Virus record (IMG/VR): IMGVR_UViG_3300028883_000508 | Span: 1-62,645 of that record | Length of the DNA: 62,645 bases | Direction: 5' to 3' (one strand) | From: a virus | Taxonomy: Duplodnaviria > Caudoviricetes | Shown here: piece after piece, positions 2,713-42,234 of the stretch | Layout: each line of letters starts with the position of its first letter | Position numbering within the stretch: the stretch's first letter is position 1 | The notes under the pieces: generated by a model | The model's input: the letters and a program-made list of their open reading frames with translations, nothing else | Told to the model about the DNA's origin: nothing | Databases searched by the model: none | Position numbers and translations under genes: made by a program

Positions 2713-4701
2713 TTAACTTTCCCTTCTAAGTACTTCTCCGACAAACCCCAACAAAGCATTTGCACAATGTTGACAATATCCCTTTTTCTGTAAAGTTCTA
2801 AGAGCTTTTGTACGTCTTGATTTAGTTTTTGCATTAGTGGATACAGTATTTGCAATTGATAGAGTAACTACATTTTTAAGATCATTCATCAATTTCTTTT
2901 CAATTGCATCTTTCAAAGGCTTATATGTATCCCATTTCCATTCTTTTCCTTCTTCCAAACAATCAGCTTTATATACAAACACTCCTTTACGGAATTCACG
3001 TTTGGATTCATTGGGAACAGGAATAAGTTCTTCTACTGCTCTCATGATTTTTTCATCTGGATTACGATATTCGCCAGTAATGCTATCTAAAATAGTTTCA
3101 TCTTTACAAAATGCTTTACAATTAGTATCATACCGAATAAAAAGTTCATCGGCTTGATCATCAAATGCATGGACAAATGCTTTACTTACTTCTTTTTTTG
3201 CAAATTCTTTATATTCTGCTACAACTGAATCTTCTTTAGCTGTTAGCAATTCCATATAAGATTGATTGTCTTTTTCTTGTCCACCAATATGATGCTGAAA
3301 ATTATCTCTTAATGCTCTAATCATATCAAGTGCAGTAATACACCCTTGATATTTATCATCTCCTGTTTCTACTGATTCTTTTTGACCAAGAGCAATATTA
3401 ATTGCATTAGTAATGAATCTTGGAGAAATACCATGCATACACTCTCCATTTTCTCTACCTTCTTCTCTAATGATTTTAACATCTTTATCTTTTCCTTTGG
3501 TAAATTCTTCAAGATATTCATCATTATAGAGTTTCATCTTTTTGATCAAAGCAATCTTTTTGGAAGGATACAACCTTGTCAAAATTGCAAATTGAGCAGC
3601 AACTTCTAGTGTGCCAGGACTGATATGGATATTAGAAAATTCAGATTCGGCAATAAGTTTTTTGTAAATCTCAATTTCATCCTTAATAGTATCATTCCAA
3701 GGAACTTTAATATGATACATACGATCATGTAATGCTTCATTTGCAGGATCATTTCTGAATTTATCAAATTCAGTTTGATTCGTATGAGAAAGAATCAATT
3801 CATCCAAAGACATTTGTGGAAATCCAGGTGCTTTAATAACACCTTCTTGGGCAAGAGTGATTAATACATGATGGAATTTAATATCTGCTTTTAGGATTTC
3901 AATATATTCCACAACCCCTCTATTAGCAACTTGCAATTCACCATCAAATTGATATGCCCTTGGATCACTTTCTCCATACATATGCAACTTGGACATATTT
4001 ACTTTACCAATCAATTCCGTAATATCTTGAGACTTAGGATCAGATGGAGTAAAAGTACCAATGCCTGTTCTTTTTTGTTCAGACAATTTAATCATTTCGA
4101 CAGGAAGATCATGCCATCTTACAAATCCTTCTTGATCTGTAAAATCTTGGTCAAGAATAAATTGGCAATAAGGACAAAGATTTCCTTCTATTTTTACCCC
4201 CAATTTTTGATTCCATTCTTCTCTAAATTGTTCAGGAATGGCATGAAGTGGATCTTCATGAATTGGACAACCTTTAATTGCATAGATAGGAGTTTGATCA
4301 GTTTCCAATCCCCTTTTAATCAAAGTAGAAATTGTTGATTTGCCTGAAGAAACTGGACCCATCAACATCATGATACGTTTACCTGTTTCAGTTCTCCTTG
4401 CAGAAGCTTTAAGAAACTTCATCATATCATGAATTGCTTCATAACAACCAAAGATTTTTCCATCAAAGAATTTATACCTAACAAGATCTTCATACCCTTT
4501 GGTTTTTCGATTTTCAGGAACAGCTTCAATTCCACTTCTCATAATCATATTATAGATTCTTGCAGGTGCAAGCATAGCAATTTCAGGATGCTCTTGAATA
4601 ATCTGCATATAATCAATAATACTTCCATCCCATCTTGACGGACCCACTTCTTCTTGTTGTTTTAGAGCAATTTCTCTAAAATCCTCATTCATTAGAACCA
4701 T
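2713..4701 (-). CDS. prkA: PrkA/YeaG family AAA+ ATPase / serine protein kinase
   Basis: Walker A GPVSSGKST, CPIHEDPL, SDPKSQDITELIG, FDGELQVANRG, GYCQHCA C-terminus; ATG 4701 has GGAG upstream. Confidence 0.95.
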   Translation of the reverse strand: MVLMNEDFREIALKQQEEVGPSRWDGSIIDYMQIIQEHPEIAMLAPARIYNMIMRSGIEAVPENRKTKGYEDLVRYKFFDGKIFGCYEAIHDMMKFLKASARRTETGKRIMMLMGPVSSGKSTISTLIKRGLETDQTPIYAIKGCPIHEDPLHAIPEQFREEWNQKLGVKIEGNLCPYCQFILDQDFTDQEGFVRWHDLPVEMIKLSEQKRTGIGTFTPSDPKSQDITELIGKVNMSKLHMYGESDPRAYQFDGELQVANRGVVEYIEILKADIKFHHVLITLAQEGVIKAPGFPQMSLDELILSHTNQTEFDKFRNDPANEALHDRMYHIKVPWNDTIKDEIEIYKKLIAESEFSNIHISPGTLEVAAQFAILTRLYPSKKIALIKKMKLYNDEYLEEFTKGKDKDVKIIREEGRENGECMHGISPRFITNAINIALGQKESVETGDDKYQGCITALDMIRALRDNFQHHIGGQEKDNQSYMELLTAKEDSVVAEYKEFAKKEVSKAFVHAFDDQADELFIRYDTNCKAFCKDETILDSITGEYRNPDEKIMRAVEELIPVPNESKREFRKGVFVYKADCLEEGKEWKWDTYKPLKDAIEKKLMNDLKNVVTLSIANTVSTNAKTKSRRTKALRTLQKKGYCQHCANALLGFVGEVLRRES

Positions 4702-4712
4702 TTTTTCTCCTT

Positions 4713-5174
4713 TCACACATCTATTATTTGTTTTGGTTTTTTATCTTCTAACACTTTGAGTAAATCTTCTCTTGATGTTACAAGTACATTTGTTTGATTT
4801 GCTGGTCTTACTCCCCTTGCCTCTTTTATCTCAATTTCTTTAGCTTTTAATTGTACTAATGCCCTTCTAACTTCCATATAATCACCATAATTTTCATCCG
4901 ATATTATTTCTTTTGATGCTTGTGTCACAGAATTAATTATGGTACTTGCTACTTCTGCTAATCTTGCACTAAAATTTCCGTTATTCATTTCATGCTGAAT
5001 CTTTTCTAATAATTGATTAGCATTATATATGTTCTTTTTTAATGCATCAATGGCATTATCATAATCTATATTTGTTTCAAAGTCAACTATTTTTTCTTCA
5101 ATATCTCTATCTAAATTATCTGCATCAGAAAATATTTGATCTAAACCCCTTAAATCTAATTCATTTGTTGTCAT
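4713..5174 (-). CDS. Terminase small subunit, T4 gp16-like
   Basis: 153 aa helical protein; SARLAEVASTII and NQTNVLVTSREDLLKVL resemble the gp16 PRAxEV and NxxFVGSTxELxxLL motifs. Confidence 0.6.
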   Translation of the reverse strand: MTTNELDLRGLDQIFSDADNLDRDIEEKIVDFETNIDYDNAIDALKKNIYNANQLLEKIQHEMNNGNFSARLAEVASTIINSVTQASKEIISDENYGDYMEVRRALVQLKAKEIEIKEARGVRPANQTNVLVTSREDLLKVLEDKKPKQIIDV

Positions 5175-5259
5175 TATCGCTATATACCCCCCCTTTTTTT
5201 AAAAATACATATTCTATATATATTTAGCTCTTTTATCAGAAAAAAATTGAAAAGTCAAG

Positions 5260-8365: not shown

Positions 8366-9175
8366 TTACATTTTATTTTCTTTCAAAACTGTAAGATATC
8401 TGTTTAAATAAGCATCAAAAGGACCAGTATCTTCATCAAGATCTTCATCTTCTTCATTTAATACTTTTCCTTTACCATGTTTTTCAGATTCATCTTTTTT
8501 ATCATCTTTCTTTTTCTTTTTCTTTTTATCATTGTCTTCATCATCATCATCGTCTTCGTCTTCGTCTTCATCATCATTTTCTTTATAAGCCTCAACAATG
8601 AAGTCAAATTTTTTGTCGATTTCATTTCTGTCTTTAACACCTTCCAACATTTGCATAACATGAGTAGATTGTTCAGTAGTCAATCCATCACATTTCTTAT
8701 ACAAATAAAGTTCAGCAGCTAAATCTTGAGCATCACCAGTGACCTCAAGTTTATCAGAAATTGATTCATCCAATTTTGATCTTAGATTTTGAATTTCAGT
8801 TTTAGCTTCTTTCAATAAAGCTTTTACTTCTTCATCCAATAATCCTTCATCAACACCAAGTCTAACTTTGAATTGCTCAATCAGATCAGAGTAAAGTTCA
8901 CCCTTTCTTGCATACTCAAGAACTTTTTCAGGAATTTGCATTTGCTCATCAAGAATCTCATCCACAAAATTTGAAAATTTTGAGGTTATATCTTCTTTGT
9001 AGGCATCAAACTTTTCCTCATATTGTTCAATGAGCTTATCCTTCTCTGTTTGTAGTAATTCATCTACTGCTTCTTTGGCTTTCAATTCAATTAGAGTTTC
9101 CAATTTTTCTTTGATTGAATTTTGTTCCTTTTCTTCTAATTTTTGAACACCAAGCATTTCAAGAAGTTTATCCAT
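8366..9175 (-). CDS. gp22: Prohead core scaffold protein, gp22-like
   Basis: Acidic coiled-coil protein directly upstream of the capsid gene; C-terminal DAYL motif. Confidence 0.8.
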   Translation of the reverse strand: MDKLLEMLGVQKLEEKEQNSIKEKLETLIELKAKEAVDELLQTEKDKLIEQYEEKFDAYKEDITSKFSNFVDEILDEQMQIPEKVLEYARKGELYSDLIEQFKVRLGVDEGLLDEEVKALLKEAKTEIQNLRSKLDESISDKLEVTGDAQDLAAELYLYKKCDGLTTEQSTHVMQMLEGVKDRNEIDKKFDFIVEAYKENDDEDEDEDDDDDEDNDKKKKKKKDDKKDESEKHGKGKVLNEEDEDLDEDTGPFDAYLNRYLTVLKENKM

Positions 9176-9208
9176 AAGCTTATCCTCCTATACTATTTTC
9201 TATACATA

Positions 9209-9216
9209 TATTTATA
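9209..9216 (-). promoter_or_regulatory. T4-type late promoter TATAAATA
   Basis: Exact TATAAATA 33 nt upstream of the scaffold gene. Confidence 0.6.
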
Positions 9217-9234
9217 ATAAATAGTTGAAATGTA

Positions 9235-9286
9235 TAAAAAAAGCCCAAAAGTGTGATATACACACACTTTTAGGCTCTATTTTTTT
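9235..9286 (-). terminator. Intrinsic terminator
   Basis: AGCCTAAAAGTGTG/CACACTTTTGGGCT stem followed by a T run on the minus strand. Confidence 0.75.
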
Positions 9287-9304
9287 ATATTATATTTTTA
9301 TATT

Positions 9305-9886
9305 TTAAGTTCTTGTCATAAATACTTTCTTCAAATTTCCTCTTGAAATTAATTCTTGACCTAAAAGTTCTCTGTATATATCATTCAATTGAGCAGTACC
9401 ATAATTTTTTACAAACATATTAGCCTCAGAACCTAATTTATGTTTCTTTTTTATTTTTTCTATATCTTTTTTCATTTGAGGTATTTGTATTTTCATTACA
9501 AAATCATGTACAGCAATTCTCAAATCTTTAAATACAATATCAGCTATAGCAGAATCATCTATAAAATCTTCTACACTACCTTCATCAAGATCTTTTGATT
9601 CTTTAAATACTTTTTGTGATTGAGTAGCAGATATATTTGGGTTTTTTCCTTTAGCAATTTTCTCAACATATTGTATAACTTCTTTAGGTGGGTTTTTTAT
9701 ATAATATTTTATTTTACGATTTTGATCAATATGAGCTATTTTTTCATAATCACCATGAACTTCTTTGGCACGATTCCATACAGATATACCATTACCCATA
9801 TGCCCAGAACCAAGATCAAATTTTTTCTTTCTTTCAAGAATAGAATTTTCATATGCTTCTAGAATTTTTTCATTTATTTCATCCAT
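9305..9886 (-). CDS. Putative internal head protein
   Basis: In head module; leader NEKILEAYENSILE with candidate gp21 I/L-x-E sites. Confidence 0.5.
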   Translation of the reverse strand: MDEINEKILEAYENSILERKKKFDLGSGHMGNGISVWNRAKEVHGDYEKIAHIDQNRKIKYYIKNPPKEVIQYVEKIAKGKNPNISATQSQKVFKESKDLDEGSVEDFIDDSAIADIVFKDLRIAVHDFVMKIQIPQMKKDIEKIKKKHKLGSEANMFVKNYGTAQLNDIYRELLGQELISRGNLKKVFMTRT

Positions 9887-9888
9887 TA

Positions 9889-10377
9889 TTATTCTCCAAA
9901 TAATCCTAAAAATGTATCAGCATCTTTTTTAGATAATTTTTTAGCAATTTTTATAGTCTCAGGTTTTAATTTCATATCTCCATACATATCTTTGCCAACT
10001 TCTTCCCAATAACCTAAAAATTTTTTAGTTCCTATACTTATAAAATAACGTAATGTACTTAAATCAGGTGGCATATGACCAATTTTCTTATGTGCTTTAG
10101 CTATATCAACTAATACATCTGCTTCTTTTTTTCTTCCATTTACAATAGCATCAAATACAGCATTTTCTGTATGATAATTCCAATCTTCTAAATCATCTAA
10201 AATTTGTCTAACATTTACATCTTCTTTTTTTGGTTTAAATCCAAATGTTTTAGAAAGATAATCAGAAAATGCTTTATGAGCATATTTCCCACCTTTACCA
10301 ACTATATTAGCTAATGTCTGCATTGATCTATCAAATTCAGTTTCATTTGCTTCTTTGATATATTTTCTTAATTTCAT
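9889..10377 (-). CDS. Putative internal head protein
   Basis: N-terminus MKLRKYIKE resembles the T4 capsid-targeting sequence. Confidence 0.55.
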   Translation of the reverse strand: MKLRKYIKEANETEFDRSMQTLANIVGKGGKYAHKAFSDYLSKTFGFKPKKEDVNVRQILDDLEDWNYHTENAVFDAIVNGRKKEADVLVDIAKAHKKIGHMPPDLSTLRYFISIGTKKFLGYWEEVGKDMYGDMKLKPETIKIAKKLSKKDADTFLGLFGE

Positions 10378-10385
10378 AATTTCTC

Positions 10386-10679
10386 CTATTTTTTAAATAT
10401 TGCTTTAGAAGTATTATAAATCCATTCAGCTTGAGCTTTAGAAAAACCTTTATTCTTTTCATATGATTTTCTTGTACCTATTGCTTGTTTATAAATATCA
10501 TTTTTCTCCTGGCCCTTTAAAGCACCTATAATAGCATCTAGTGTTTTTTTAGCATCTTCAGTAGCATCTTCAGATAACATATATTGTTCTCTAATAACTT
10601 TATCATATGCACTAAGAATTCTACTATTTTCATCTGTGGCATTAAAATCTCTATTTAATCTTTTTGGATATAATTTCAT
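10386..10679 (-). CDS. Putative internal head protein
   Basis: Leader NSRILSAYDKVIRE...MLSE shared with neighbours. Confidence 0.5.
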   Translation of the reverse strand: MKLYPKRLNRDFNATDENSRILSAYDKVIREQYMLSEDATEDAKKTLDAIIGALKGQEKNDIYKQAIGTRKSYEKNKGFSKAQAEWIYNTSKAIFKK

Positions 10680-11406: not shown

Positions 11407-12165
11407 TTATCCCTTTAATTTCTTTATTTGAGCATCAGTAAATTTAAATTTTGTTCTTAGTATTTTCTCTGCTTCTTTTGCACTTGGCCCACCCAACATT
11501 CCTTTTGCTGGATTTTTTACTGTATCCATACAAATTTTCTTTTGATGTTTATTAGCAACATCAACACCTTCAAACATTACATCAATAGTTTCCATCAAAT
11601 AATTAAAATATACTTCTTGTGCTTTTTTTATTTGTTCTTCTTTTATATTTTCATCCTTCATTCCTGGTAAAACAAAACTAGTTCCTTCATAAATACCATT
11701 TACCCATGAAGGATTATTAGAAGGATCAGTAACCAAATCCCATGTAATCAAATGAAAGTCTTCATTTACATAACCATCATCATTAACAGTACCTAATCCT
11801 CTTGAACTAATACCCATTTGTCCTTCTCTAACAAGAGTTTTAGCAATTTGGCCCATTGGAGTATCAAGAATCTTAGCTTTACCATAAAGATCATTTCCTC
11901 TCCATTCTAATTGAGTAGTTCTAAGAGCAATTTTATCAGGATTTACTTCAGGATTAGGTGGATGGCCTAATTCTCCCCATAAACATTTCTTTTCAACTTT
12001 TTGCTGAACTTTTGATACTTCTCTTTCTAGTAAATCTTTTTTATATACTCTTTTGTTATTATTTTTAAGTTCCGCTGAAGAAAAAATACCAACTGCATAC
12101 ATATCTTTAGTTTTTTTATCCTCATGCAACTCAAAATCATATGACATTTCTGTTATCAGTTTCAT
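11407..12165 (-). CDS. gp21: Prohead protease, T4 gp21-like
   Basis: MKLITE, NNNKRVY, GELGHP, ILDTPMG, GISSRGLG, DLVTDPS. Confidence 0.96.
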   Translation of the reverse strand: MKLITEMSYDFELHEDKKTKDMYAVGIFSSAELKNNNKRVYKKDLLEREVSKVQQKVEKKCLWGELGHPPNPEVNPDKIALRTTQLEWRGNDLYGKAKILDTPMGQIAKTLVREGQMGISSRGLGTVNDDGYVNEDFHLITWDLVTDPSNNPSWVNGIYEGTSFVLPGMKDENIKEEQIKKAQEVYFNYLMETIDVMFEGVDVANKHQKKICMDTVKNPAKGMLGGPSAKEAEKILRTKFKFTDAQIKKLKG

Positions 12166-12177
12166 GTTATATCTCCT

Positions 12178-12381
12178 TTATTCATCATCTCCTGTTTTAT
12201 CATCCAGATCTACATTAGCATCAGGAGCAGGATTAATATCTTGTGATAATCCTAATTTGTTTTTCAAAAAAACATCTCTTTTTCCAGCAATTTCTTGAGA
12301 AATAATTTCTTTTGCATCTACATATTGATCATTTTCAAAACTATCTAATGCTTTTCTAATCGCTTTTTTATTCATTTTCAC
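12178..12381 (-). CDS. Small prohead core protein (gp67-like position)
   Basis: 67 aa with acidic tail, between portal and protease. Confidence 0.5.
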   Translation of the reverse strand: MKMNKKAIRKALDSFENDQYVDAKEIISQEIAGKRDVFLKNKLGLSQDINPAPDANVDLDDKTGDDE

Positions 12382-15367: not shown

Positions 15368-15714
15368 CTTTAAAATTCCTTTCTATTTTAGAAAATATTT
15401 TTTACTATATTGTATTATTTCTACTATTGAATGGGAAAATGGATCTATAAAATATTTTGAGGTAGGATAAAAATAGGTTATATCACTAAAAAATTGCATA
15501 TTATCATTTATATGGTTATAATGCAAAACATTGTAAGTTAAGTTGTCAAGTATGTCTATAAAACAATCAAAAGAATCAAGAGACAACTATTTCCTTACAT
15601 AAAAACCTAAACATATTTCCTGTTTTGATTTAATTTCTTGAACAGGAAAATCAGTAATCATAGGAATATAACATATTCTCCTTTACATTTTTTTTTAATT
15701 AAGATTAATAGTAA

Positions 15715-16944
15715 CTAACTATGTGAAGGACATTCACCATTACAACCACAATCAGATGGGTCACAATTGCAATGACTGTCACATATACATGCAATTCTTG
15801 TTGCATTAATTTTTGTTTGTAAATCTGTTATATCAGTAGCATAAATTATACTACCAGATGGACTACCAGATTGAGCTAAAAAACTAGTTGTTACTAATGA
15901 TCCAAATCCACTATCATTTACTACTTCATTATTAGCTTCTTTTATATCATTAAAATGATTTCTTAATATAGTACCACCTGATACAACTCCACTTGTCCAT
16001 AAATATCCAGAAAAATCATTATTAGAACATGCAATATCTCCTGGTGTATGAGTATCACAATAATCAGGTTCACCTGAATTAAATCTTCTAATACCATTAA
16101 CTCTTTCATCATCAATTGCAATTTGAAGTTCTTCTAAATGACTTGCTCTTATATAATCAAGAGCTACAATAGAAGTAAAAGTATATTCATTTGAACATAC
16201 AGGAGCATTTCCAGTACAAATTTGATTACTTCCACAATCATTTGTACAAGAATCACCACTTGAGCTTGATCCTGATTCACAATTAAAAGCTACTTGCATT
16301 GATATATCACATACATCATCATTTTCATCATGAGGCCAAGATTTTGTTCCTGTTGGACCTGTAGATGGATAATAATATCCTGATGCTAACCACATTCTTC
16401 CTGTTTTACCAATATCAAAAAAACTAGTAACTCCCACTGGTGGATTTAGATATGTGGGATTAAAAACATTAAGACCATCATTAGCAACTAACATTGGTAT
16501 ACTAAATACAAGTGACCCTGAATTATTTATATCTATTGAAGGAGTATCAATACTATCATTTTCTGCTCTATCATCTGAAGCACCTGCTATTGCATCTATT
16601 ATATCATCAAGATCAACCCCTCTTAAACAAGTAATAAAACCACACCAATATTCACTATTAGTTTGAGTCCATGTATAACTAGATGGTTCTGTAGAATAAT
16701 TAACTATTTCTTTAGTATAAAGTAAAAGTTGTCTATCTGCTTCATCTCCATCTGATTTTCTTAGAACAAGATCCCATCCTGAAGGTGGATTTATTGTATT
16801 TCTATCAATACTACCAACTACAGCTACAAAAAGATCATTATTTTGTCCTGTTGGTTTATCTATCTCTATACTAGTACTTTGACTTACATCACCAAAAAAA
16901 TTTTTAGAATATCCTGTAGTTGTATCAATAATTGTAATTGCCAT
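15715..16944 (-). CDS. Cys-rich putative virion/fibre-associated protein, candidate radical SAM substrate
   Basis: PPSGW...EPSSYTWT beta domain, three IxxxHxxELxxxI-like repeats, C-terminal CICDSHCNCDPSDCGCNGEC. Confidence 0.6.
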   Translation of the reverse strand: MAITIIDTTTGYSKNFFGDVSQSTSIEIDKPTGQNNDLFVAVVGSIDRNTINPPSGWDLVLRKSDGDEADRQLLLYTKEIVNYSTEPSSYTWTQTNSEYWCGFITCLRGVDLDDIIDAIAGASDDRAENDSIDTPSIDINNSGSLVFSIPMLVANDGLNVFNPTYLNPPVGVTSFFDIGKTGRMWLASGYYYPSTGPTGTKSWPHDENDDVCDISMQVAFNCESGSSSSGDSCTNDCGSNQICTGNAPVCSNEYTFTSIVALDYIRASHLEELQIAIDDERVNGIRRFNSGEPDYCDTHTPGDIACSNNDFSGYLWTSGVVSGGTILRNHFNDIKEANNEVVNDSGFGSLVTTSFLAQSGSPSGSIIYATDITDLQTKINATRIACICDSHCNCDPSDCGCNGECPSHS

Positions 16945-16948
16945 AATA

Positions 16949-19120
16949 TTATTTCCTTATTAATATAGACTCAATAGCAGCACCTACCTTACCTACCATT
17001 TGATAATATTCACATAATTCTTTTTGAACAGGATAATCATACCATCTATCTAAATGAGTCTTTTTTTTACTTTCTTCATATTTTCTTACATTACATCTCA
17101 AACATGAACCAGCTATACATTGTTGGCATTCTTCAGGTTCAATATGATTATTTTCATAAAGACTATTTGCTTTCTGTATACTATTTATAAAATTTTTATC
17201 AAAAATATTTGTGTATTTAAGATCATTAGAACATCTTGAATAAATTGCACCATGACAATTATATACTTCTCCATTAGTATCTATACATGCCATACTTTTT
17301 CCAGTAGCACAAAAAGCTTTATTACTTCTAAATATATTTGACAAAAAATATTTATGTTTTCTATAAAATTCTATTTCTTTTGTAGCTATTCCAATTAAAT
17401 ATTCTTCTATTATTTCTTTATTTTTTTCAAATTCTACATCATAATAGTCCATAGTTAAAGAATATTTTATTTTAGGACCATATATACTATGTAATTTTTC
17501 AAAATCTTCCCATGATTGAATTATAAAATTATAATTTTTCCAAGTTAAAGTAGATTTTAATCCATATTCAATACCATAACGATGTAATTCATTTATAGCA
17601 TTTTTTACAATATCAGAAGTAGATTTACCTTTTTTATCTTTTCTAAGTTTATCGTGAATTGGATTTCCATCATAAGATACTTGAACAGTTAGTTTTTTTA
17701 TATTAGAATCAATAAAAGGCTGTTCTTTTAATCTTCTATAGGTAGGCATCATTTCATTTGTAGTTGAACCATTAGTATATATAAAGAAAGCTATTCTTAT
17801 ATCTTTTCTGAATGTTTCCATTAAAGCTTTACATAATGGCATATTGAGAGTAGGTTCTCCCCCCCATAATATAAGTTTTATACCAGAATATTGTGATTTA
17901 AACCATTCAGATGCTAATAATTCTTTTATTCTTTTAGTAAGAATTTTTATATCTAAAAGATTTTCTTTAAGAATATGATTTTTCTCAAAACAATTATGAA
18001 CAGCAAATCCATTAGCTATATATGTTCCACTTTCTGTTTCTATATTATAAACTTTTTTAATTCCTAAATTTTCTATTTTTTTTATCTTTTCACTATTTAA
18101 AAGTTTATTATCATATATAACTTCAAATCCTTTTCTTTTAATAGATGGTTGTGTTATCTGTATAAATTTTATTCTATCAAAATATTTGCAAAATCTAATT
18201 GATTTACAAATATTATTTTCTTCTTTAAATTCTATGGATAATTTATTTAATCCATCTTTTATTTCATTAATAATATTTTCATCTGTATTATAAATTCTTA
18301 TAAAACCTTTTTGATGAGAACCTTCAGCATCAAATATACCTGATAAAAATCCACATAAGTATTCATATGTTTTATTTTTTCTAAAATTATTATTTATTAA
18401 AAAATTTAATTTTTCATATGTATCTCTTTTTCCAGAAAATATTGCTTCGGATATTATATTATGTTTTTTTGATATTTCAAAATCTCTTAATACATAATTA
18501 ATCTTAATATCATCTAAATATTTTTTAGTTCTTTCTATAGGTTCTTTATCTTTTAAAGCTAATCTAAAAAGAAATATATCATATTCTGGCCCATGATGAT
18601 TTTCTTTATAATTTTTTAAAGTTCCATCTCCTAATATAATACCTAATAAATATCCAATTTTATAATCATAGTTTATAGGACATGGTTTATTTTCATCATA
18701 CCATATACCCATTACTTTTTGGTTAATTTTATAATCACCAGCTTCTTTCATTCCATAATTATGATTACTTCTATTATTATATATTCGATGATTTTTTGTT
18801 ATATTAAGAAATTTATTATTTTCAAGAGTTATTCTTATTACTTCATCTTCTCTTTCAAATAAATTTAAAACTTTGGCAGGTTTTATTTTACGATGTTTAT
18901 ATTTTTCTTTATATTCATCAAAACCAAGTACTTCATCACCAATTTTTATATCTTTTATTTCTTTAATAGAAAAATCAGACATAAAAATTTTAGAATCATC
19001 TGTTAGGCAATAAGTACACCTAAAATTACATTTTTGAGTAGTAGTTATTTCTAATCCATATATTCCTTTCTGTATTTCACAATCTTTTTTCGATTCTTTT
19101 CTCAAATCTGTTAATTTCAT
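16949..19120 (-). CDS. Radical SAM/SPASM protein containing an intein
   Basis: CNFRCTY|C(FE) motif after splicing, WGGEPTLN, YTNG, VSYDG, SPASM cysteines CATG...NCHG...CQQC...CLRC. Confidence 0.92.
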   Translation of the reverse strand: MKLTDLRKESKKDCEIQKGIYGLEITTTQKCNFRCTYCLTDDSKIFMSDFSIKEIKDIKIGDEVLGFDEYKEKYKHRKIKPAKVLNLFEREDEVIRITLENNKFLNITKNHRIYNNRSNHNYGMKEAGDYKINQKVMGIWYDENKPCPINYDYKIGYLLGIILGDGTLKNYKENHHGPEYDIFLFRLALKDKEPIERTKKYLDDIKINYVLRDFEISKKHNIISEAIFSGKRDTYEKLNFLINNNFRKNKTYEYLCGFLSGIFDAEGSHQKGFIRIYNTDENIINEIKDGLNKLSIEFKEENNICKSIRFCKYFDRIKFIQITQPSIKRKGFEVIYDNKLLNSEKIKKIENLGIKKVYNIETESGTYIANGFAVHNCFEKNHILKENLLDIKILTKRIKELLASEWFKSQYSGIKLILWGGEPTLNMPLCKALMETFRKDIRIAFFIYTNGSTTNEMMPTYRRLKEQPFIDSNIKKLTVQVSYDGNPIHDKLRKDKKGKSTSDIVKNAINELHRYGIEYGLKSTLTWKNYNFIIQSWEDFEKLHSIYGPKIKYSLTMDYYDVEFEKNKEIIEEYLIGIATKEIEFYRKHKYFLSNIFRSNKAFCATGKSMACIDTNGEVYNCHGAIYSRCSNDLKYTNIFDKNFINSIQKANSLYENNHIEPEECQQCIAGSCLRCNVRKYEESKKKTHLDRWYDYPVQKELCEYYQMVGKVGAAIESILIRK
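17993..19009 (-). mobile_element. Intein (339 aa) with LAGLIDADG homing endonuclease
   Basis: Begins CLTDDS, ends GFAVHN, +1 residue Cys; YLLGIILGDG and FLSGIFDAEG blocks. Confidence 0.93.
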
Positions 19121-19274
19121 CTTCCACCTTTTTATCTATAGCAATAATTTGATTTTTATATTCTTGTGCTTTATCTAACAGTAATTTAGCAAAATCAGAA
19201 TCAATATGTTTAACAAATTTTGCACATTCAACTAGTGCTATAGAAGCATTATATAATAATCTATTTCTGTTCAT
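19077..19274 (-). CDS. Hypothetical protein (65 aa)
   Basis: ATG 19274 with AAAGGA just after tRNA-Gly; the longer ORF-track start overlaps the tRNA. Confidence 0.6.
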   Translation of the reverse strand: MNRNRLLYNASIALVECAKFVKHIDSDFAKLLLDKAQEYKNQIIAIDKKVEDEINRFEKRIEKRL

Positions 19275-19285
19275 ATGTTTTCCTT

Positions 19286-19359
19286 TGGAGCGAATGGAGA
19301 GATTTGAACTCTCATTAACAGATTGGAAGTCTGTCAGTCTACCATTGACGTACACCCGC
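19286..19359 (-). tRNA. tRNA-Gly(TCC)
   Basis: GCGGGTG/CATTCGC acceptor, ACAGA-CTTCCAA-TCTGT, GAGAG-TTCAAAT-CTCTC, encoded CCA. Confidence 0.92.
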
Positions 19360-19683
19360 ATTTTTCATCCATTGTTTTTCTATTTTTCTATTTTTCCAAG
19401 ATTTTCTTGTTCTAACATCAGATCTTCCATAATCATCATATGCATTAGGAAGATTTGGTGATTTTCTTTTCCCTCTTACATATCCTTCATATGCAAAGGA
19501 AAGTTTTCTTTCTTGAGTAGATTTTGGTTTTTTACACCAACAATAGAAATATCTTCTGTATTTACTATTAGCACTTACAACAAAAGGTACAGGATCAATT
19601 CTAAATCTGTAAGTATGTTTAGGATATCCTATTCCTGGTTTTGCCCATCTTCTACATGCAGGTAATTTTTCACCATATTTCAT
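19339..19683 (-). CDS. Basic hypothetical phage protein
   Basis: GGAG upstream; KPKSTQER...LPNAYDD...SWK...KQW; stop lies inside tRNA-Gly. Confidence 0.75.
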   Translation of the reverse strand: MKYGEKLPACRRWAKPGIGYPKHTYRFRIDPVPFVVSANSKYRRYFYCWCKKPKSTQERKLSFAYEGYVRGKRKSPNLPNAYDDYGRSDVRTRKSWKNRKIEKQWMKNAGVRQW

Positions 19684-19710
19684 TTTTTTATCTCCTAAAT
19701 TAAAGTTAAA

Positions 19711-19941
19711 TTAGAAAATATCAAAAATATAATTACTCATTTTTTTCTCCTTCTCTTTTTTTTCATGTATTCTTGCTAAAGATTCCATTGCCCATTTTTC
19801 CATTTCAGGAGTTATATCCTTTTGTTCAGTAACAATCAATCCAATAGCTGTTAAAGCAGCAAAATCAGATAGTTCATCAAATCTCCAAGCTGTTACTGCT
19901 TCTTCTATTTGCTTCATTTTTTCTTTTATTTTCATTTTCAT
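19711..19941 (-). CDS. Hypothetical protein, probably leaderless
   Basis: ATG 19941 is 7 nt after the -10 box; the ORF-track extension overlaps tRNA-His. Confidence 0.6.
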   Translation of the reverse strand: MKMKIKEKMKQIEEAVTAWRFDELSDFAALTAIGLIVTEQKDITPEMEKWAMESLARIHEKKEKEKKMSNYIFDIF

Positions 19942-19947
19942 TTCCAT

Positions 19948-19976
19948 AGTATATTTTTTAAATAAACTATTGTCAA
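19948..19976 (-). promoter_or_regulatory. Sigma70-type promoter
   Basis: TTGACA-17 nt-TATACT. Confidence 0.75.
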
Positions 19977-19985
19977 GATAAATTT

Positions 19986-20063
19986 TGGGGTGGATGTGGA
20001 GAATCGAACTCCAATCATACAAGAGCCACAATCTTGCTCTTTACCATTTAAGATACATCCACC
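19986..20063 (-). tRNA. tRNA-His(GTG)
   Basis: G-1, GTGGATG/CATCCAC, C73, CAAGA-TTGTGGC-TCTTG, TGGAG-TTCGATT-CTCCA, CCA. Confidence 0.92.
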
Positions 20064-20075
20064 ATATTTACCATT

Positions 20076-20151
20076 TGGGGCCGATGAAAGGACTTGAACC
20101 CTCAACATTCTCCTTACAAAAGAGCTACTCTGCCAATTGAGTTACATCGGC
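20076..20151 (-). tRNA. tRNA-Thr(TGT)
   Basis: GCCGATG/CATCGGC, ACTC/GAGT D stem, loop TTTGTAA, GAGGG-TTCAAGT-CCTTT, CCA. Confidence 0.9.
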
Positions 20152-21568: not shown

Positions 21569-21829
21569 CTATTCTCCTTTTTCTGGTAGTCTTACATTTT
21601 CTCCCCTTGATTTTGCTTCATTATAAAGTCTATAATACTGACTAGTATTTCCCGACCAATCACATATATCTGATTTAGGATCATATTTTAGATCAAATCT
21701 TGTTCCTTTTTTTGGAAATACTCTTTTAGCATCTTGCCCACATTTGGGGCATTTTACTTTTTTTACATTATGTTTTTCCAAACTATCAAATTCATTACCA
21801 CATGGGCATGAAAAGTCATAAATTGGCAT
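21569..21829 (-). CDS. FmdB-family zinc-ribbon protein
   Basis: MPIYDFSCPCG...CPKCG. Confidence 0.8.
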   Translation of the reverse strand: MPIYDFSCPCGNEFDSLEKHNVKKVKCPKCGQDAKRVFPKKGTRFDLKYDPKSDICDWSGNTSQYYRLYNEAKSRGENVRLPEKGE

Positions 21830-22014
21830 TACTCCCCCTTAGAATATCCATTTTTTTCTGAATACCCATTCATTATAAAATTACTTGATGATATAATTTT
21901 TATAGCATTTCCTTTACATTTCCAACAAGTTATTTTCTTTATATTACTATTTATCGGATATCTTCTTGATTCTACATTACCACAATTTTTACATTTAAAT
22001 TCATAAATTGGCAT
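21829..22014 (-). CDS. FmdB-family zinc-ribbon protein
   Basis: MPIYEFKCKNCG...CWKC...KIISSSNF. Confidence 0.8.
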   Translation of the reverse strand: MPIYEFKCKNCGNVESRRYPINSNIKKITCWKCKGNAIKIISSSNFIMNGYSEKNGYSKGE

Positions 22015-25118: not shown

Positions 25119-25470
25119 ATTCTTCACTAAATTTTCTCCTTATATCTGGTGGAAATAACTTAAAAAAACTTCTATAATCTGAATCACTACATATATTAAA
25201 CATATCTGCCATTATACACATTATTTCAATTGTAGAAATATTATTTCCATGTTGTCTTTTTAATTTATTATATATTTTTTTTACTGATTTTTTTAAAGAT
25301 AAGTGTATTGATTGTCTTGATATGTTTAATATATTTCCTATATCATCTCCTGACATATGTTTTCCATTTTCAAAAGCTACACATTCTATTTTATCTTTAT
25401 TTTTTTCAAAAAATAAAGTATAATCTTTATTAGATACAATTTTTTTCATATTTATTCCTTTATATATCAC
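25102..25470 (-). CDS. HTH DNA-binding protein (sigma region 4-like)
   Basis: MSGDDIGNILNISRQSIHLSLKKS. Confidence 0.6.
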   Translation of the reverse strand: MIYKGINMKKIVSNKDYTLFFEKNKDKIECVAFENGKHMSGDDIGNILNISRQSIHLSLKKSVKKIYNKLKRQHGNNISTIEIMCIMADMFNICSDSDYRSFFKLFPPDIRRKFSEEYERRN

Positions 25471-28294
25471 ATGATCCTGTACTGCAAGTTCTTTCTTCTT
25501 GATCTTGTATTATATTACCTTCCTTTATATATTTTTTTATTTCTTTTTTAGTTAATGGATTTAATATCTGTCCTTCTCTTGAACCATCAACATAAACAGT
25601 ACATCCTTTTAAATCTCTAATATACTCAAGTAGTAAATTACTTAATTGTTCTGATTTAAATTCTTTTGGGCAATTAATAGTTTTTGATACAGCACCATCA
25701 ACATATCTTTGAACTGCTACTTGTGTTTCAAAATGATCTTCAGGTTTTAAATTAAAACTATCAACATACCAATCTGGTGTTTTTTCATTATTTTCTATTA
25801 TTTTTTTATAGATGGGATGAATATATGCTCTATCACTTATCTCATCATGCCTTAGATATGCTTTACAGAATAATGGTTCAATGCTACTTGTTACTTCTGG
25901 TAGTAATGATATAGTTCCAGTAGGTGCTATGGCAAGCAATGTAACATTTCTAATTCCATATTTTTTAATATCCATTCTTGTTTTTGCTGGTAATGATTTA
26001 ATGAAGTGTGCTTTTGAATACTCTCTACTATCAAATTTTGGGAAAGGTTCTTTTTCTTCTGCAAGTTTAATGGAAGACTCATAAGCAAAATTTCTTATAT
26101 TCTCCATTAAAGTATTAGTGACTCTTATTGCTTCTTGTGATCCATATTTAACCCCCTTTGAAAATAAATACTCAGCAAGGCCCATAACACCTAATCCAAT
26201 TCTTCTGCCATCAAATGCTTTACGTTTTACATCTTCAATAACATATCTATTTACTTGAATAATATTATCTAAAAATCTAACAGCATTATGAACTGTTTTT
26301 TCCATTAATTGCCAATTAGTATTAGTTTTTCCTGTAATAAAATTTGGTAATACTAAACTACCAAGACAGCAAACCCCATGAGCACCTAATGGAACTTCTC
26401 CACAAGGGTTGGTACTATTATGAACAACAATACCATTAGCTATTAAAGAATGTGTAACATTAGTTTCAACATCATATACTTCTTGTTCTCCTAAAGACTT
26501 AATAGATTTAACTTTAAACATTCCATAATATTTTTCATTCCATATACTTCCAAATTCATAATCATTTAAAATATTACTTTTTTCTGAATGTTTACTACCA
26601 ATTAATTTTTTAAAAGCCATACATGATAATTTTCTACTAATATTAACAGTATATGCAGTAAAAAGTTTTTCATTTAATTTTGATATCCTTGATCCAATAG
26701 ATGATGGAATACCAAATTCATTTAACATTATTTGTATTCTTTCTGCTATATTTTTCTTTGATGTTACAAGAGTTATTTTTTTACCTTTTCCTGTATTTCC
26801 ATTACCAACTCTTTGTATACTACCATCTGAATCATATAAACCAGAAATAAAACCACGTTTAAAACTTGGAGATTCTTGTAGAACATCATCTGATATAAAT
26901 TTACTGCTTCTTCTTGTTCCTCTCATATATCCATATTCATTTACATCACAATAATAACCCCATCTTTTAAAATACTCAACCACATCTTTAGATGAAGTTG
27001 TTAATTCAAAAGATTTACTTCCATTAGAACTTCTATGCCAATTTGTATGTCTACCTGAAAGAATTAAATTATTAATTTTTGTTTCAACAAAATTCATCAT
27101 ATCTTCTTCATTTTCATTAAAACAAAAACCATATTGTGTTGTATTATTATTTTTACAAATCCATCCATCTCCAACTAATAAACCAAGTAAATAACCATTA
27201 TCAAATTCTTTTTCATTTTCTAAATTATTGACAAAATGTTGAGAAATAGAATTTTGAACATACATATAATCTTCTTTGACTTTTAAATTTTTTACTTCTT
27301 TCCATCCATCTTTTGTCCATACTTTATGATTATCTGTAAGTTTTATTTTTTGATTATTTTGAAGTTTAATTTCAAATATTTCTTTTACACCTGATTTAAA
27401 ACCAATTCCATCTTCAATAAATGTTCCTTGAGAACCAATAACTCTTAAATCAGATATTGTTTTTACTTTCTTATCTACCAAATCTTTGATAGGAATAAGC
27501 CCTTTGGTAGTTGAAATAAGAGTATCACCAGTAAAACAAAGGATAGGATCAAAATAATAGCTGTTATTTGATCTAAGATTATCCCAATTAATTAATCCTG
27601 GTTCTGCACATTTAACCATATTAGTTAAAATTAAATCCCATATTTCTCTTGCTTTAAGTGTAATCCATTGTTTATTTCCCCATTTTAAATTCCAATCACT
27701 ATCTGCTTCCACAGCTTCAAGAAAATCTTCTATTACTCCAACTGAAATATTGAAGCAATTAAGTTCTCCATCTACTAATTTTGCATTTATGAATTTAATG
27801 ATATCTGGATGGGTTACAAGCATCATAGCTAATGCAGCAGCACGTCTAGCTCCACCAGTTTTAATACAATTAGCACCTGCATTTGCCCATTTTAGAAATG
27901 AAATTGGTCCTGAAGATTCTCCACCTTTTTGAATAATAGGTGCATTTTCTGGTCTTAAAAAGGATGCATTGCATCCAACTCCCCCACCTTCCGACCAAAG
28001 AACTCCACAATTTTTTTGAAAATCACCAATTTGATCCATTGAATCTTCTAATGGTTCAACATAACAATTAAATAATGATCCTCTTGGTCTTCCTATATTT
28101 CTTAAAATTCTTCCACCTGGAAGAAATAACATATTGTATACATCTGAAGCAAAAATATCAGTCCATTCTTTAAAATTTGGTTCTATTTGTGCTCCACCTA
28201 TACCAACTCTTTCTGATAATTCTTGCCATGTTTCATTTTCATACATAGCATATCTACTTTTTAAAATAATATTCGAATTTTTACTTAAAACCAT
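25460..28294 (-). CDS. nrdJ: Class II (B12-dependent) ribonucleotide reductase with intein
   Basis: FLPGGR, LFNCYV, GGARRAA, FNISV, TNPCGE, RIGLGVMG, IAPTGT, VSKTIN, C-terminal CSTGSCDI. Confidence 0.93.
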   Translation of the reverse strand: MVLSKNSNIILKSRYAMYENETWQELSERVGIGGAQIEPNFKEWTDIFASDVYNMLFLPGGRILRNIGRPRGSLFNCYVEPLEDSMDQIGDFQKNCGVLWSEGGGVGCNASFLRPENAPIIQKGGESSGPISFLKWANAGANCIKTGGARRAAALAMMLVTHPDIIKFINAKLVDGELNCFNISVGVIEDFLEAVEADSDWNLKWGNKQWITLKAREIWDLILTNMVKCAEPGLINWDNLRSNNSYYFDPILCFTGDTLISTTKGLIPIKDLVDKKVKTISDLRVIGSQGTFIEDGIGFKSGVKEIFEIKLQNNQKIKLTDNHKVWTKDGWKEVKNLKVKEDYMYVQNSISQHFVNNLENEKEFDNGYLLGLLVGDGWICKNNNTTQYGFCFNENEEDMMNFVETKINNLILSGRHTNWHRSSNGSKSFELTTSSKDVVEYFKRWGYYCDVNEYGYMRGTRRSSKFISDDVLQESPSFKRGFISGLYDSDGSIQRVGNGNTGKGKKITLVTSKKNIAERIQIMLNEFGIPSSIGSRISKLNEKLFTAYTVNISRKLSCMAFKKLIGSKHSEKSNILNDYEFGSIWNEKYYGMFKVKSIKSLGEQEVYDVETNVTHSLIANGIVVHNSTNPCGEVPLGAHGVCCLGSLVLPNFITGKTNTNWQLMEKTVHNAVRFLDNIIQVNRYVIEDVKRKAFDGRRIGLGVMGLAEYLFSKGVKYGSQEAIRVTNTLMENIRNFAYESSIKLAEEKEPFPKFDSREYSKAHFIKSLPAKTRMDIKKYGIRNVTLLAIAPTGTISLLPEVTSSIEPLFCKAYLRHDEISDRAYIHPIYKKIIENNEKTPDWYVDSFNLKPEDHFETQVAVQRYVDGAVSKTINCPKEFKSEQLSNLLLEYIRDLKGCTVYVDGSREGQILNPLTKKEIKKYIKEGNIIQDQEERTCSTGSCDI
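26417..27538 (-). mobile_element. Intein (374 aa) with LAGLIDADG homing endonuclease in NrdJ
   Basis: CFTGDT...GIVVHN|S-TNPC; YLLGLLVGDG and FISGLYDSDG. Confidence 0.93.
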
Positions 28295-37585: not shown

Positions 37586-37666
37586 ACTATAACACATCTT
37601 GAATGAAATTGTTAAATAAAAAATTTTTAAAAAAAATTAACAATTAATACTTCTTTATGTTATAGT
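37586..37666. promoter_or_regulatory. Back-to-back TTAACA-N18-TATAGT promoters at the strand switch
   Basis: Minus 37615-37586 and plus 37637-37666, both with TGT before the -10. Confidence 0.65.
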
Positions 37667-37699
37667 AATAAAAAATAATAATATAATGGAGAATTAATT

Positions 37700-38140
37700 A
37701 TGGATAACGATGAATTGAAAGAAAAATTCATAAGGTTTTTAAGAGAACAATCAAAGAAAAATGAAAATAAAGATGGTACAAATAAATTTTTTAAAAGAGC
37801 ATTTTGGTTTAGTAGATGCCTTAGAGTTTTAAATGTAAATAAATTAGGTCAAGATCTTATTGGTTATATACAAGAAGAAACATGGGGTCAATATAGTAGT
37901 AAATGGGTCAATATAGGAAATTATTATGAAATAGATAAAAAATGTTTTTATTCTACAAAATCAAATAATGGAAATAAAACAAAAAGAGCTATTGAAAATT
38001 TAAAATCATTAGGATTGATAGAATTTAAAAATAGTAATGGATTAAAAGAAGATATATGTATTGCTATAGATTTTAATACAGATAATTGGATTTTAAATGA
38101 AAAACAAAGAAAAATTATTGATATAATTACAAATAAATAA
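37700..38140 (+). CDS. Winged-helix protein resembling the lambda-O-type initiator N-domain
   Basis: YIQEETWG...TKRAIENLKSLGLIE...IDFNTDNW; iterons follow directly. Confidence 0.5.
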   Translation: MDNDELKEKFIRFLREQSKKNENKDGTNKFFKRAFWFSRCLRVLNVNKLGQDLIGYIQEETWGQYSSKWVNIGNYYEIDKKCFYSTKSNNGNKTKRAIENLKSLGLIEFKNSNGLKEDICIAIDFNTDNWILNEKQRKIIDIITNK

Positions 38141-38192
38141 TGAAATATATTTCATATATATACTTTATATATATTTATCAGTATATACAAAA

Positions 38193-38262
38193 CATATACT
38201 GACAAAATGTCCGTATATACTGACAAAATGTCCGTATATACTGACAAAATGTCCGTATATAC
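38193..38262. repeat. Three 21-bp direct repeats (iteron-like)
   Basis: TATATACTGACAAAATGTCCG x3 (one mismatch) plus a partial copy; inverted half-site TCAGTATATA at 38178-38187. Confidence 0.9.
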
Positions 38263-38341
38263 GCACTTAACTTAGAGGAATTATTATGAATTTTTACACC
38301 ATAGAGTTTAGAGAGTTAAGAGAGAGTATATTAAAGTTTAA

Positions 38342-38417
38342 ATCTAGTTCTAGAACTAGATATAATTTACTAGCGTAAATTATAAAGGGATTTTCGAACT
38401 AAAGTTCTCAATCCCTT
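38342..38417. repeat. Three consecutive palindromes/hairpins
   Basis: ATCTAGTTCTAGAACTAGAT; TATAATTTAC-tagc-GTAAATTATA; AAGGGATT...GAACT-aa-AGTTC...AATCCCTT. Confidence 0.8.
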
Positions 38418-42155: not shown

Positions 42156-42234
42156 CGGGTAGTAGTCTAGTCTGGTCTAAGATGGGGGTTTTGGATACCT
42201 CAGATCGCAAGTTCAAATCTTGCCTACCCGACCA
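42156..42234 (+). tRNA. tRNA-Pro(TGG)
   Basis: CGGGTAG/CTACCCG, GGGGT-TTTGGAT-ACCTC, GCAAG-TTCAAAT-CTTGC, CCA. Confidence 0.92.

Follow-up and report, generated by a model that had tools for sequence, protein, structure and literature searches.

What is the function of a radical S-adenosylmethionine (radical SAM) enzyme that a phage encodes immediately ahead of a 409-residue protein rich in cysteine? The question is raised by IMG/VR virus record IMGVR_UViG_3300028883_000508, the whole 62,645-nt stretch of which is called the window here, a 62.6-kb piece of a T4-like phage with a low GC content (about 27%). A sequence-only reading of this DNA had suggested that the enzyme introduces thioether crosslinks into a structural protein. 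The present analysis adds a third gene, which encodes a 65-aa all-helical protein; the three genes, all on the minus strand (15715-19274), are referred to as the cassette. We give an even chance to the reading that they form a maturation unit, in which the small protein would serve as adaptor and an intein-gated radical SAM enzyme would staple a fibre-like Cys-rich protein through thioethers.

Composition and linkage of the cassette

The sequence-only reading had the gene pair right, including the 4 nt that separate the stop codon of the radical SAM open reading frame (ORF) from the ATG of the 409-aa ORF (15715-16944), a gap with which the exact coordinates agree; it overlooked the 65-aa gene, an intein within the enzyme gene and the two-module build of the 409-aa protein. 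An exhaustive HMMER search with the 409-aa protein yielded 547 hits (E <= 0.001) of two kinds. Those of the first kind align with residues 1 to about 230 and belong to large proteins of several domains, up to 2611 aa long; those of the second kind align with residues 232-409 and are stand-alone proteins of 142-210 aa or, in a few cases, fusions of 284-435 aa. The window protein joins a jelly-roll domain to a Cys-rich module of 190 aa, which elsewhere mostly occurs on its own, and in such fusions a Gly-rich linker connects the N-terminal domain and the module. Stand-alone modules start with MPCTCNAICDNDC, contain three I.A.H..EL..AI..ER repeats and end with CICDSHC.CD..CGCNGECPSDDYYYYYP. Most family members terminate in DDYYYYYP, a Tyr tail that is absent in the window and in several other members. 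At 15700-15730 (minus strand) the window protein ends CPSHS-stop and the +1 frame reads SYY-stop across a tandem AGTTAGTT; a short Tyr tail was probably lost here by a small duplication or indel, or the difference is a sequencing error.

AlphaFold2 (AF2) models agree with the earlier description of a beta-rich N-terminal domain followed by three helical repeats (Table 1). The N-terminal domain is all-beta, and the module has three helices, at protein residues 267-281, 328-345 and 369-384 (50-64, 111-128 and 152-167 of the modelled part), the repeats quoted in that reading being located at residues 265, 326 and 367. The confident core of the module spans residues 249-386, and the Cys tails on both sides of it have predicted local distance difference test scores (pLDDT) below 50. 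The seven Cys in 20 aa that had been noted in the tail are present, at residues 386-405.

The pairing of enzyme and Cys-rich protein was searched for from both sides. On the module side 31 distinct loci were collected (L003 and L005-L034; one from IMG/VR, 27 metagenomic and three from metagenome-assembled genomes), among which the module identities go down to 32%. A radical SAM gene is directly upstream of the module in 23/23 loci with upstream DNA; L014, L015, L016, L023, L029, L030, L031 and L033 begin in or at the module gene and are uninformative on this point. On the enzyme side IMG/VR was scanned with a profile, which returned 53 loci, 42 of them with a strong full-length radical SAM match (L036-L077, 26-41% identity). 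Hidden Markov models (HMMs) identify an adjacent Cys-rich homologue in 32/42, and seven more have an adjacent ORF with 17-86 Cys and repeat arrays like CNYxCTCx that the HMMs left unscored, which gives a total of 39/42 with an adjacent Cys-rich protein and 3/42 without. (The C-extein as single query found no relative in IMG/VR; profiles from smaller alignments did find relatives. In INPHARED no cultured carrier of the cassette was found.) The association is found on contigs between 8.6 kb and 315 kb long whose GC contents range from 0.22 to 0.41. The linkage holds from both sides, and the objection foreseen in the sequence-only reading, that the two genes might lack conserved linkage, does not apply.

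The small protein belongs to the same arrangement: it is encoded upstream of the enzyme in 15/15 loci that are long enough (14 by tblastn and L026 by frame reading), and in L003, the closest IMG/VR relative, its gene is similarly placed after tRNA-Gly.

Some of these loci have further features of their own. Most loci of the enzyme side (L036-L077) have one or two weakly related radical SAM paralogues in tandem upstream of the small protein (e.g. L043 1744-2748 and L055 672-2973). In L055 a 364-aa protein with 86 Cys, organized in octad repeats CICDCNHA / CTCNCNYS, is encoded directly after the radical SAM gene (4101-5195); to judge from sequence, the repeat-number variation of proteins of this type looks like that of fibrous proteins. 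In L003 two further radical SAM/SPASM genes are located a few genes downstream (8894-10510 and 11432-12352), one of them fused to a sulfotransferase domain (PF00685, E 7e-10). This fusion and the acidic DDYYYYYP terminus of the Cys-rich protein together prompt the idea of a putative tyrosine sulfation.

The enzyme, its intein and its small partner

The enzyme is a member of the radical SAM superfamily (PF04055, 35.7 bits; cutoff 29.5). The GGEP motif and the third cluster Cys are invariant in our alignment of the family (A6), and the window C-extein retains all columns that are invariant in it, GGEP and seven SPASM Cys included. These seven C-terminal Cys are invariant in 15/15 radical SAM sequences, in the arrangement C-x12-G-x4-C ... 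C-x2-C-x4-C-x2-C ... C, which is shortened with respect to the SPASM motif (CX9-15GX4C ... CX2CX5CX3C ... C), and the Cys-rich region aligns with the SPASM part of the anaerobic sulfatase maturase anSME. The SPASM model TIGR04085 scores 22.4 bits (cutoff 27), and PF13186 is not among the Pfam matches of the window enzyme.

Among the NCBIfam families the PapB ranthipeptide maturase (NF047865) is the top match, with 71.2 bits for the window C-extein and 73 bits for the L003 enzyme (equivalog cutoff 340). For the window C-extein it is followed by DynA, anSME, a Nif11-type maturase and QhpD, all under their cutoffs; TIGR03942 (anaerobic sulfatase maturase) reaches 41.5 bits (cutoff 349) and TIGR03906 (QhpD) 38 bits (cutoff 453). 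TIGR04463, the family of CrpC, matches the L003 enzyme only (32.5 bits, cutoff 525); the window C-extein has 16 families listed, and this one does not appear there. The enzyme belongs to none of the matched curated maturase families. By profile search its closest solved relatives are anSME (PDB 4K36-4K39, E 1e-12), which aligns over the full length, and CteB (5WGG, E 3e-12), which aligns over the core only. The top match to PapB, the anSME and CteB relatives and the seven invariant Cys point to an enzyme of the SPASM/peptide-maturase type, in line with the SPASM label of the sequence-only reading. Since the cluster motif starts at residue 31 (26 in L003), the enzyme has no room for an N-terminal recognition domain (RRE).

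In the window the CX3CX2C cluster motif is interrupted by the intein, as C31-x3-C35-x2-(intein)-C377. The insert starts with C38, contains a T-x-x-H block (ITKNH) and ends VHN376, followed by C377 as the +1 nucleophile, and both LAGLIDADG motifs are present (LLGIILGDG and FLSGIFDAEG). In Pfam it matches LAGLIDADG_3 with 38.5 bits (cutoff 22.5), Intein_splicing with 33.9 bits, just below the cutoff of 35.8, and Hint. Thirteen full-length relatives of the enzyme are without the insert and read CNxxCxYCFE, and the L008 enzyme has an intein at the identical site (54% identity over 158 aa). By its sequence the insert is a class 1 LAGLIDADG intein, for which splicing is predicted; with the intein removed from the 723-aa ORF, the mature enzyme would have about 384 aa (37 + 347 aa). 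The third cluster ligand of the mature enzyme is the intein's +1 nucleophile, and before splicing it is Cys1 of the intein that fills the last position of a CX3CX2C string. An intein-like LAGLIDADG insert is also found in the ribonucleotide reductase large-subunit gene (25460-28294, minus strand; phrog_84, E 8e-113), at about 26417-27382 and 22% identical to the radical SAM intein. As both genes bear one, the phage has at least two inteins.

For the 65-aa protein, Pfam and PHROGs give no match and NCBIfam gives only two rows at chance level (E 0.015-0.017). A three-chain complex of the intein-less L003 enzyme, the Cys-rich substrate and the small protein was modelled, each chain with an alignment. 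The complex scores 0.72 (runs 0.72, 0.70, 0.76) and the best of three controls 0.00; in the calibration the score mark was attained by 58/80 solved complexes and 2/110 mismatched pairs, this job being unlike the calibration in its author-built alignments and its three chains. The runs have at least 68% of the contacts in common, and the partner pLDDT is 76. The modelled small protein contacts radical SAM residues 231-239, 254-256, 321-326 and 366-374, on the SPASM/C-terminal face, with its C-terminal helix and substrate residues 32-64, the first strand-helix repeat, with its N-terminal half. The model suggests that the small protein is a stand-alone adaptor between enzyme and substrate, in place of the fused RRE of the maturases of peptides made by the ribosome and modified after translation (RiPPs).

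Cysteine motifs, virion role and competing explanations

The Cys of the Cys-rich proteins are followed at position +3 by D, E, N or Q far above expectation. In 31 family members this is so for 308/457 Cys, compared with 107 expected from composition, and eight conserved Cys have such a residue in at least 25 of the 31 members. In 26 proteins of a sister family from the enzyme-side loci the count is 266/436 Cys, compared with 96 from shuffles, and the pattern is kept in the expanded repeat arrays. The window protein alone has it at 9/17 Cys (shuffle mean 4.09; 9 attained in 16/2000 shuffles).

We infer that the enzyme acts on the Cys-rich protein, and the following course can be proposed. Excision of the intein would restore the CX3CX2C motif and give an active enzyme; the adaptor would press the first repeat of the folded core onto the SPASM/C-terminal face; the enzyme would then abstract hydrogen from the side chains of Asp, Asn or Glu three residues past Cys, and thioether bridges of the ranthionine type would form in the flexible Cys-rich tails that flank the three-repeat core. 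The substrate would combine a fast-evolving jelly-roll binding domain with the 190-aa module, and the outcome would be redox-insensitive staples in a protein synthesized in the reducing cytoplasm; the sequence-only reading had considered an anaerobic cytoplasm, where disulfides cannot form, as a possible rationale.

A place for such a protein in the virion is indicated by the sister family, with which the window family is homologous (hhalign 99.5%, E 3e-22, 142 columns). The Cys tail of the sister family reads DCICNSDC.CN.VC.CHNDCGCNY, and in 8/13 aligned members SD.RLK and a C-terminal domain come right after it. Pfam identifies this domain as Peptidase_S74 (PF13884), an intramolecular chaperone of trimeric phage fibres and spikes (endosialidase type); 4/10 sister proteins tested pass its cutoff of 22 bits (L043, L061, L064 and L067; 28.6-40.9 bits) and one more is just under it. 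Forms without S74 end where S74 forms would be cut. A tblastn search with an S74-bearing sister protein matches only the S74 part of annotated structural proteins in cultured phages, and NCBIfam gives chance-level rows only for nine sister proteins. The term 'structural protein' in the sequence-only reading is plausible because Cys-rich homologues bear this phage-fibre chaperone domain. Compared pair by pair, the proteins have 45-61% identity in the C-module but only 29-32% in the N-domain, a contrast that would suit a conserved anchor with an exchangeable tip for binding. The product is most likely an appendage or decoration of the virion, fibre-like and probably trimeric, a location suggested by homology.

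The N-terminal domain itself is likely a binding module. Its homologues by sequence are large surface proteins that contain Big_9, cadherin, Calx-beta and fn3 domains, together with a Rhodococcus phage minor tail protein (E 7e-4). Foldseek gives no match to it at E <= 0.001; weak fold matches (VIA) are the C-terminal domain of Pgp3 [Z 5.3, root mean square deviation (r.m.s.d.) 3.0, 102 aligned] and the head of the Tuc2009 receptor-binding protein (Z 4.9). These matches suggest a relation of the modelled fold to TNF/C1q-like jelly rolls and phage receptor-binding-protein heads and are not evidence of function.

The 409-aa protein as a whole has no match in Pfam, PHROGs or NCBIfam. For the C-module, Foldseek finds nothing in the PDB at E <= 0.001 and the family profile has no PDB hits at E <= 1; in BFVD there are weak rows only, among them rudivirus proteins (E 7e-3) and a gut phage protein labelled 'SCIFF' (E 0.29). 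The best fold match, by VIA-align wide, is the BARA domain (Z 6.6, r.m.s.d. 3.5, 113 aligned); it was rejected, being within the noise range of the tool and not significant. The ESM Atlas gave no feature hits and weak structure rows (TM 0.33-0.55). One mostly viral cluster of the Atlas bears the automatic label of a recent Pfam family, PF27846 'tSAM_targ_Cxxx_rpt'; curators may already have flagged such targets.

Several observations weigh against a stapled virion protein. Many of the loci are closely related, and the linkage counts exceed the number of independent events. The closest cultured relatives of the enzyme (about 31% identity) are found in the CP220 group of Campylobacter phages and are without a Cys-rich neighbour; the CP220 record has no module match (0/1, E <= 10), and its radical SAM neighbours are Cys-poor. 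The enzyme remains far under the curated family cutoffs, such as those of PapB and TIGR04463, and under that of SPASM as well. The window protein has no S74 domain by Pfam and is matched by no PHROG structural family. The cassette sits between replication and head genes and not with the tail-fibre genes, its neighbours in the window have decayed, and its Cys-rich protein is without the Tyr tail. A T4-type late promoter is absent just upstream of the cassette; TATAAATA is not enriched in the window (33 sites compared with 24.3 +/- 4.9, at least 33 being reached in 8/100 shuffles), and none lies just 5' of the cassette.

The main rival is metal binding. The Cys tails could be metal-thiolate sites (Zn, Fe or Fe-S) that hold the termini together or lie along the axis of a trimeric fibre, the radical SAM enzyme then having some activity other than thioether formation or having the Cys-rich protein as its partner and not as its substrate. 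The tails are rich in CxC (three C-x-C motifs) and have a conserved His, which makes them resemble such sites and also counts against stapling; AF2 leaves them unmodelled, which is common for metal sites with shallow alignments; and T4 gp37 and gp12 reportedly bind metal via repeated motifs (His-x-His). We nevertheless regard this explanation as unlikely, given the strict linkage of three genes, one encoding a SPASM enzyme of the peptide-maturase type and another the predicted bridging adaptor, and given the D/N/E at +3, which is conserved across divergent families and expanded repeats. Thiolate ligation needs no such spacing, whereas the motifs of CrpA, the substrate of CrpC, have it.

That the enzyme modifies the Cys-rich protein by another chemistry, such as oxidation of Cys to formylglycine as by anSME, sactionine links at the alpha-carbon or C-C/C-O links to the Tyr-rich end, seems improbable to us. 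It would suit anSME, the closest full-length solved relative, which modifies proteins and is likewise without an RRE, and the presence of DynA and cyclophane-forming maturases among the weak matches alongside the DDYYYYYP end of most members. The C/S-x-P/A-x-R motif of sulfatases was, however, not seen on reading the family tails, and the Tyr tail is dispensed with in the window and several members, whereas C-x-x-D/N/E is general.

A separate concern, which we hold to be distinctly improbable, is that the cassette copy of the window is decaying and no longer works. Of the genes that come after the module elsewhere, that for a 202-aa protein is missing and the next one is left as a remnant broken by stops (15401-15670), the Cys-rich protein ends CPSHS with SYY-stop in the +1 frame, and the enzyme gene has been invaded by an intein. 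Yet the three ORFs are intact, the intein has Cys1, T-x-x-H, His-Asn, Cys+1 and both LAGLIDADG motifs, all invariant columns of alignment A6 are kept and several members are naturally without a Tyr tail.

Finally, a long RiPP precursor, whose folded core would act as leader for a C-terminal Cys-rich peptide released as ranthipeptide or sactipeptide, is very improbable: the C-terminal Cys are placed as in leader-core precursors, the top enzyme match is a RiPP maturase and the fold of the 'SCIFF'-labelled gut phage protein is weakly (not significantly) similar, but the substrate is a protein of 150-436 aa with a folded core instead of a short leader-core precursor, the cassette of no locus read contains a protease or exporter (the neighbours in L003 and L025 have no protease or transporter families), there is a Cys cluster on the N-terminal side too, binding domains are fused N-terminally by Gly linkers, the tail of relatives lies inside the protein with the S74 fibre chaperone after it, and repeat arrays grow to as many as 86 Cys, as in fibrous proteins.

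Flanking genes, related systems and implications

The window is T4-like (Straboviridae-type) by its Portal_T4 protein (Pfam, E 1e-96) and major head protein (phrog_138, E 9e-83), and it also encodes a prohead protease (phrog_207) and scaffold (phrog_237). Upstream of the cassette are genes of replication and nucleotide metabolism, namely primase, the intein-bearing ribonucleotide reductase and an exonuclease. In other long loci the next gene after the Cys-rich gene encodes a 202-aa protein (phrog_25260); this gene is absent from the window, as are the genes that follow the 296-aa gene in those loci. Two adjacent small paralogues of 86 and 61 aa (21569-22014, minus strand) start MPIY(D/E)F and contain paired CxxC motifs; one has an L003 homologue, and both resemble zinc-ribbon proteins. 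At about 37600-38400 a switch of the coding strand coincides with a sign change of the GC skew.

Table 1. Positions of the cassette genes, their parts and neighbouring features in the window.
Feature	Position	Strand	Remarks
65-aa all-helical protein, predicted adaptor	19077..19274	-	11 nt after tRNA-Gly; overlaps start of radical SAM ORF by 44 nt
Radical SAM ORF	16949-19120	-	723 aa, intein included
Radical SAM N-extein	19010..19120	-	37 aa, ends C31-x3-C35-x2; aligns with intein-less homologues, e.g. L003
Intein with LAGLIDADG homing endonuclease	17993..19009	-	339 aa, residues 38-376 of radical SAM ORF
Radical SAM C-extein	16949..17992	-	347 aa + stop; radical SAM core and SPASM-like domain, seven invariant Cys
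Cys-rich protein ORF	15715-16944	-	409 aa, 17 Cys
N-terminal all-beta domain	16297..16944	-	About residues 1-216, two jelly-roll halves; AF2 pLDDT 86
Gly/Ser linker and N-terminal Cys cluster of C-module	16195..16296	-	Residues 217-250: C222, C233, C237, C243, C250; pLDDT <50
C-module core	15790..16194	-	Residues 251-385; three strand-helix repeats I.A.H..EL..AI..ER; confident AF2 core
Cys-rich C tail CICDSHCNCDPSDCGCNGECPSHS and stop	15715..15789	-	7 Cys, candidate modification sites C-x-x-D/N/E; pLDDT <50
tRNA-Gly(tcc)	19286-19359	-	Directly upstream of 65-aa gene
tRNA-Gly(tcc), tRNA-His(gtg), tRNA-Tyr(gta)	19286-20151	-	Directly upstream of cassette
tRNA-Pro(tgg)	42156-42234	+	Away from cassette
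Stop-interrupted remnant	15401-15670	-	296-aa gene intact in L003, 59% identity over residues 109-217

Several cellular systems provide points of comparison. QhpD, a SPASM radical SAM enzyme, reportedly forms thioethers between Cys and Asp/Glu in the protein subunit QhpC. QhpC is a small enzyme subunit, of quinohemoprotein amine dehydrogenase, and not a phage protein, and genes for an amine dehydrogenase are absent here. PapB/PapA (freyrasin) and CteB/CteA (SCIFF), which represent the top NCBIfam match and a solved relative of the phage enzyme, join Cys to the side chain of an acidic or polar residue that lies a few positions downstream. They act on short leader-core peptides with a fused RRE, whereas the phage system has a folded 190-409-aa protein with recognition predicted to proceed via a separate 65-aa protein. 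anSME is like the phage enzyme in its size of about 370 aa, its radical SAM core followed by a region of SPASM type, the absence of an RRE and its action on a protein substrate; unlike in sulfatase maturation, no sulfatase gene or sulfatase-type substrate motif was seen here. Among the phage fibres and spikes with S74, the Cys-rich proteins of the sister family share the domain after the Cys tail and the window protein is without it; the literature search found no S74 fibre with a radical SAM partner.

The nearest parallel is the Crp system of Methanococcus voltae. According to the part of its description available to us (PMC13692751, 2026), the SPASM radical SAM enzyme CrpC crosslinks the Cys-rich protein CrpA (28.8 kDa, with C-X-X-Q/D motifs) through ranthionines, CrpB as a third component increases the yield of CrpA modification, and QhpD/QhpC is named as a precedent for protein thioethers. 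As far as that part goes, the Crp proteins are like the phage unit in having a SPASM-type radical SAM enzyme beside a large Cys-rich protein, repeated motifs of the C-X-X-(Q/D) type and a third protein that is small or related (PMC13692751). They differ in that CrpC is a TIGR04463 member with an N-terminal RRE, whereas the phage enzyme scores far below that family cutoff and has no space for an RRE; the substrate families are unrelated in sequence, and Crp is a cellular system with demonstrated chemistry whereas the phage unit is known from sequence and models. By analogy, the phage unit appears to resemble the Crp system in all features tested, yet it lies outside the Crp families.

The available part of the Campylobacter phage literature notes radical SAM genes merely as an oddity (PMC3322345). 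Our literature search found no description of a phage structural protein modified by a radical SAM enzyme and none for 'Cxxx repeat' combined with 'radical SAM'. Thioether stapling by SPASM enzymes is already known for cellular proteins and peptides; for a phage protein we found none described. Special to the copy in the window are the intein in the cluster motif, the separate predicted adaptor and the jelly-roll fusion.

Covalent stabilization of virions is known in the form of isopeptide chainmail (HK97) and of disulfides. If the stapling reading is true, enzyme-made thioethers would be a third, redox-insensitive kind, and RiPP chemistry would enter virus assembly. It would also provide a function for radical SAM genes in Campylobacter phages and other large phages, which have been a puzzle to annotators. 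The trio of adaptor, enzyme and folded substrate with short C-x-x-D/N tags is compact and portable and could possibly become a protein-stapling tool, and the intein within a cluster-binding motif offers a natural test case for conditional splicing. More tentatively, and with some doubt on our part, many uncultured phages, from T4-like to jumbo, may use a radical SAM enzyme of their own and an adaptor to staple, while still in the host cell, a protein of the fibre or decoration kind through redox-proof thioethers, as a general maturation step; here an intein would gate the enzyme as well, its first Cys taking the place of the third iron-sulfur ligand and its splicing perhaps being coupled to cluster assembly.

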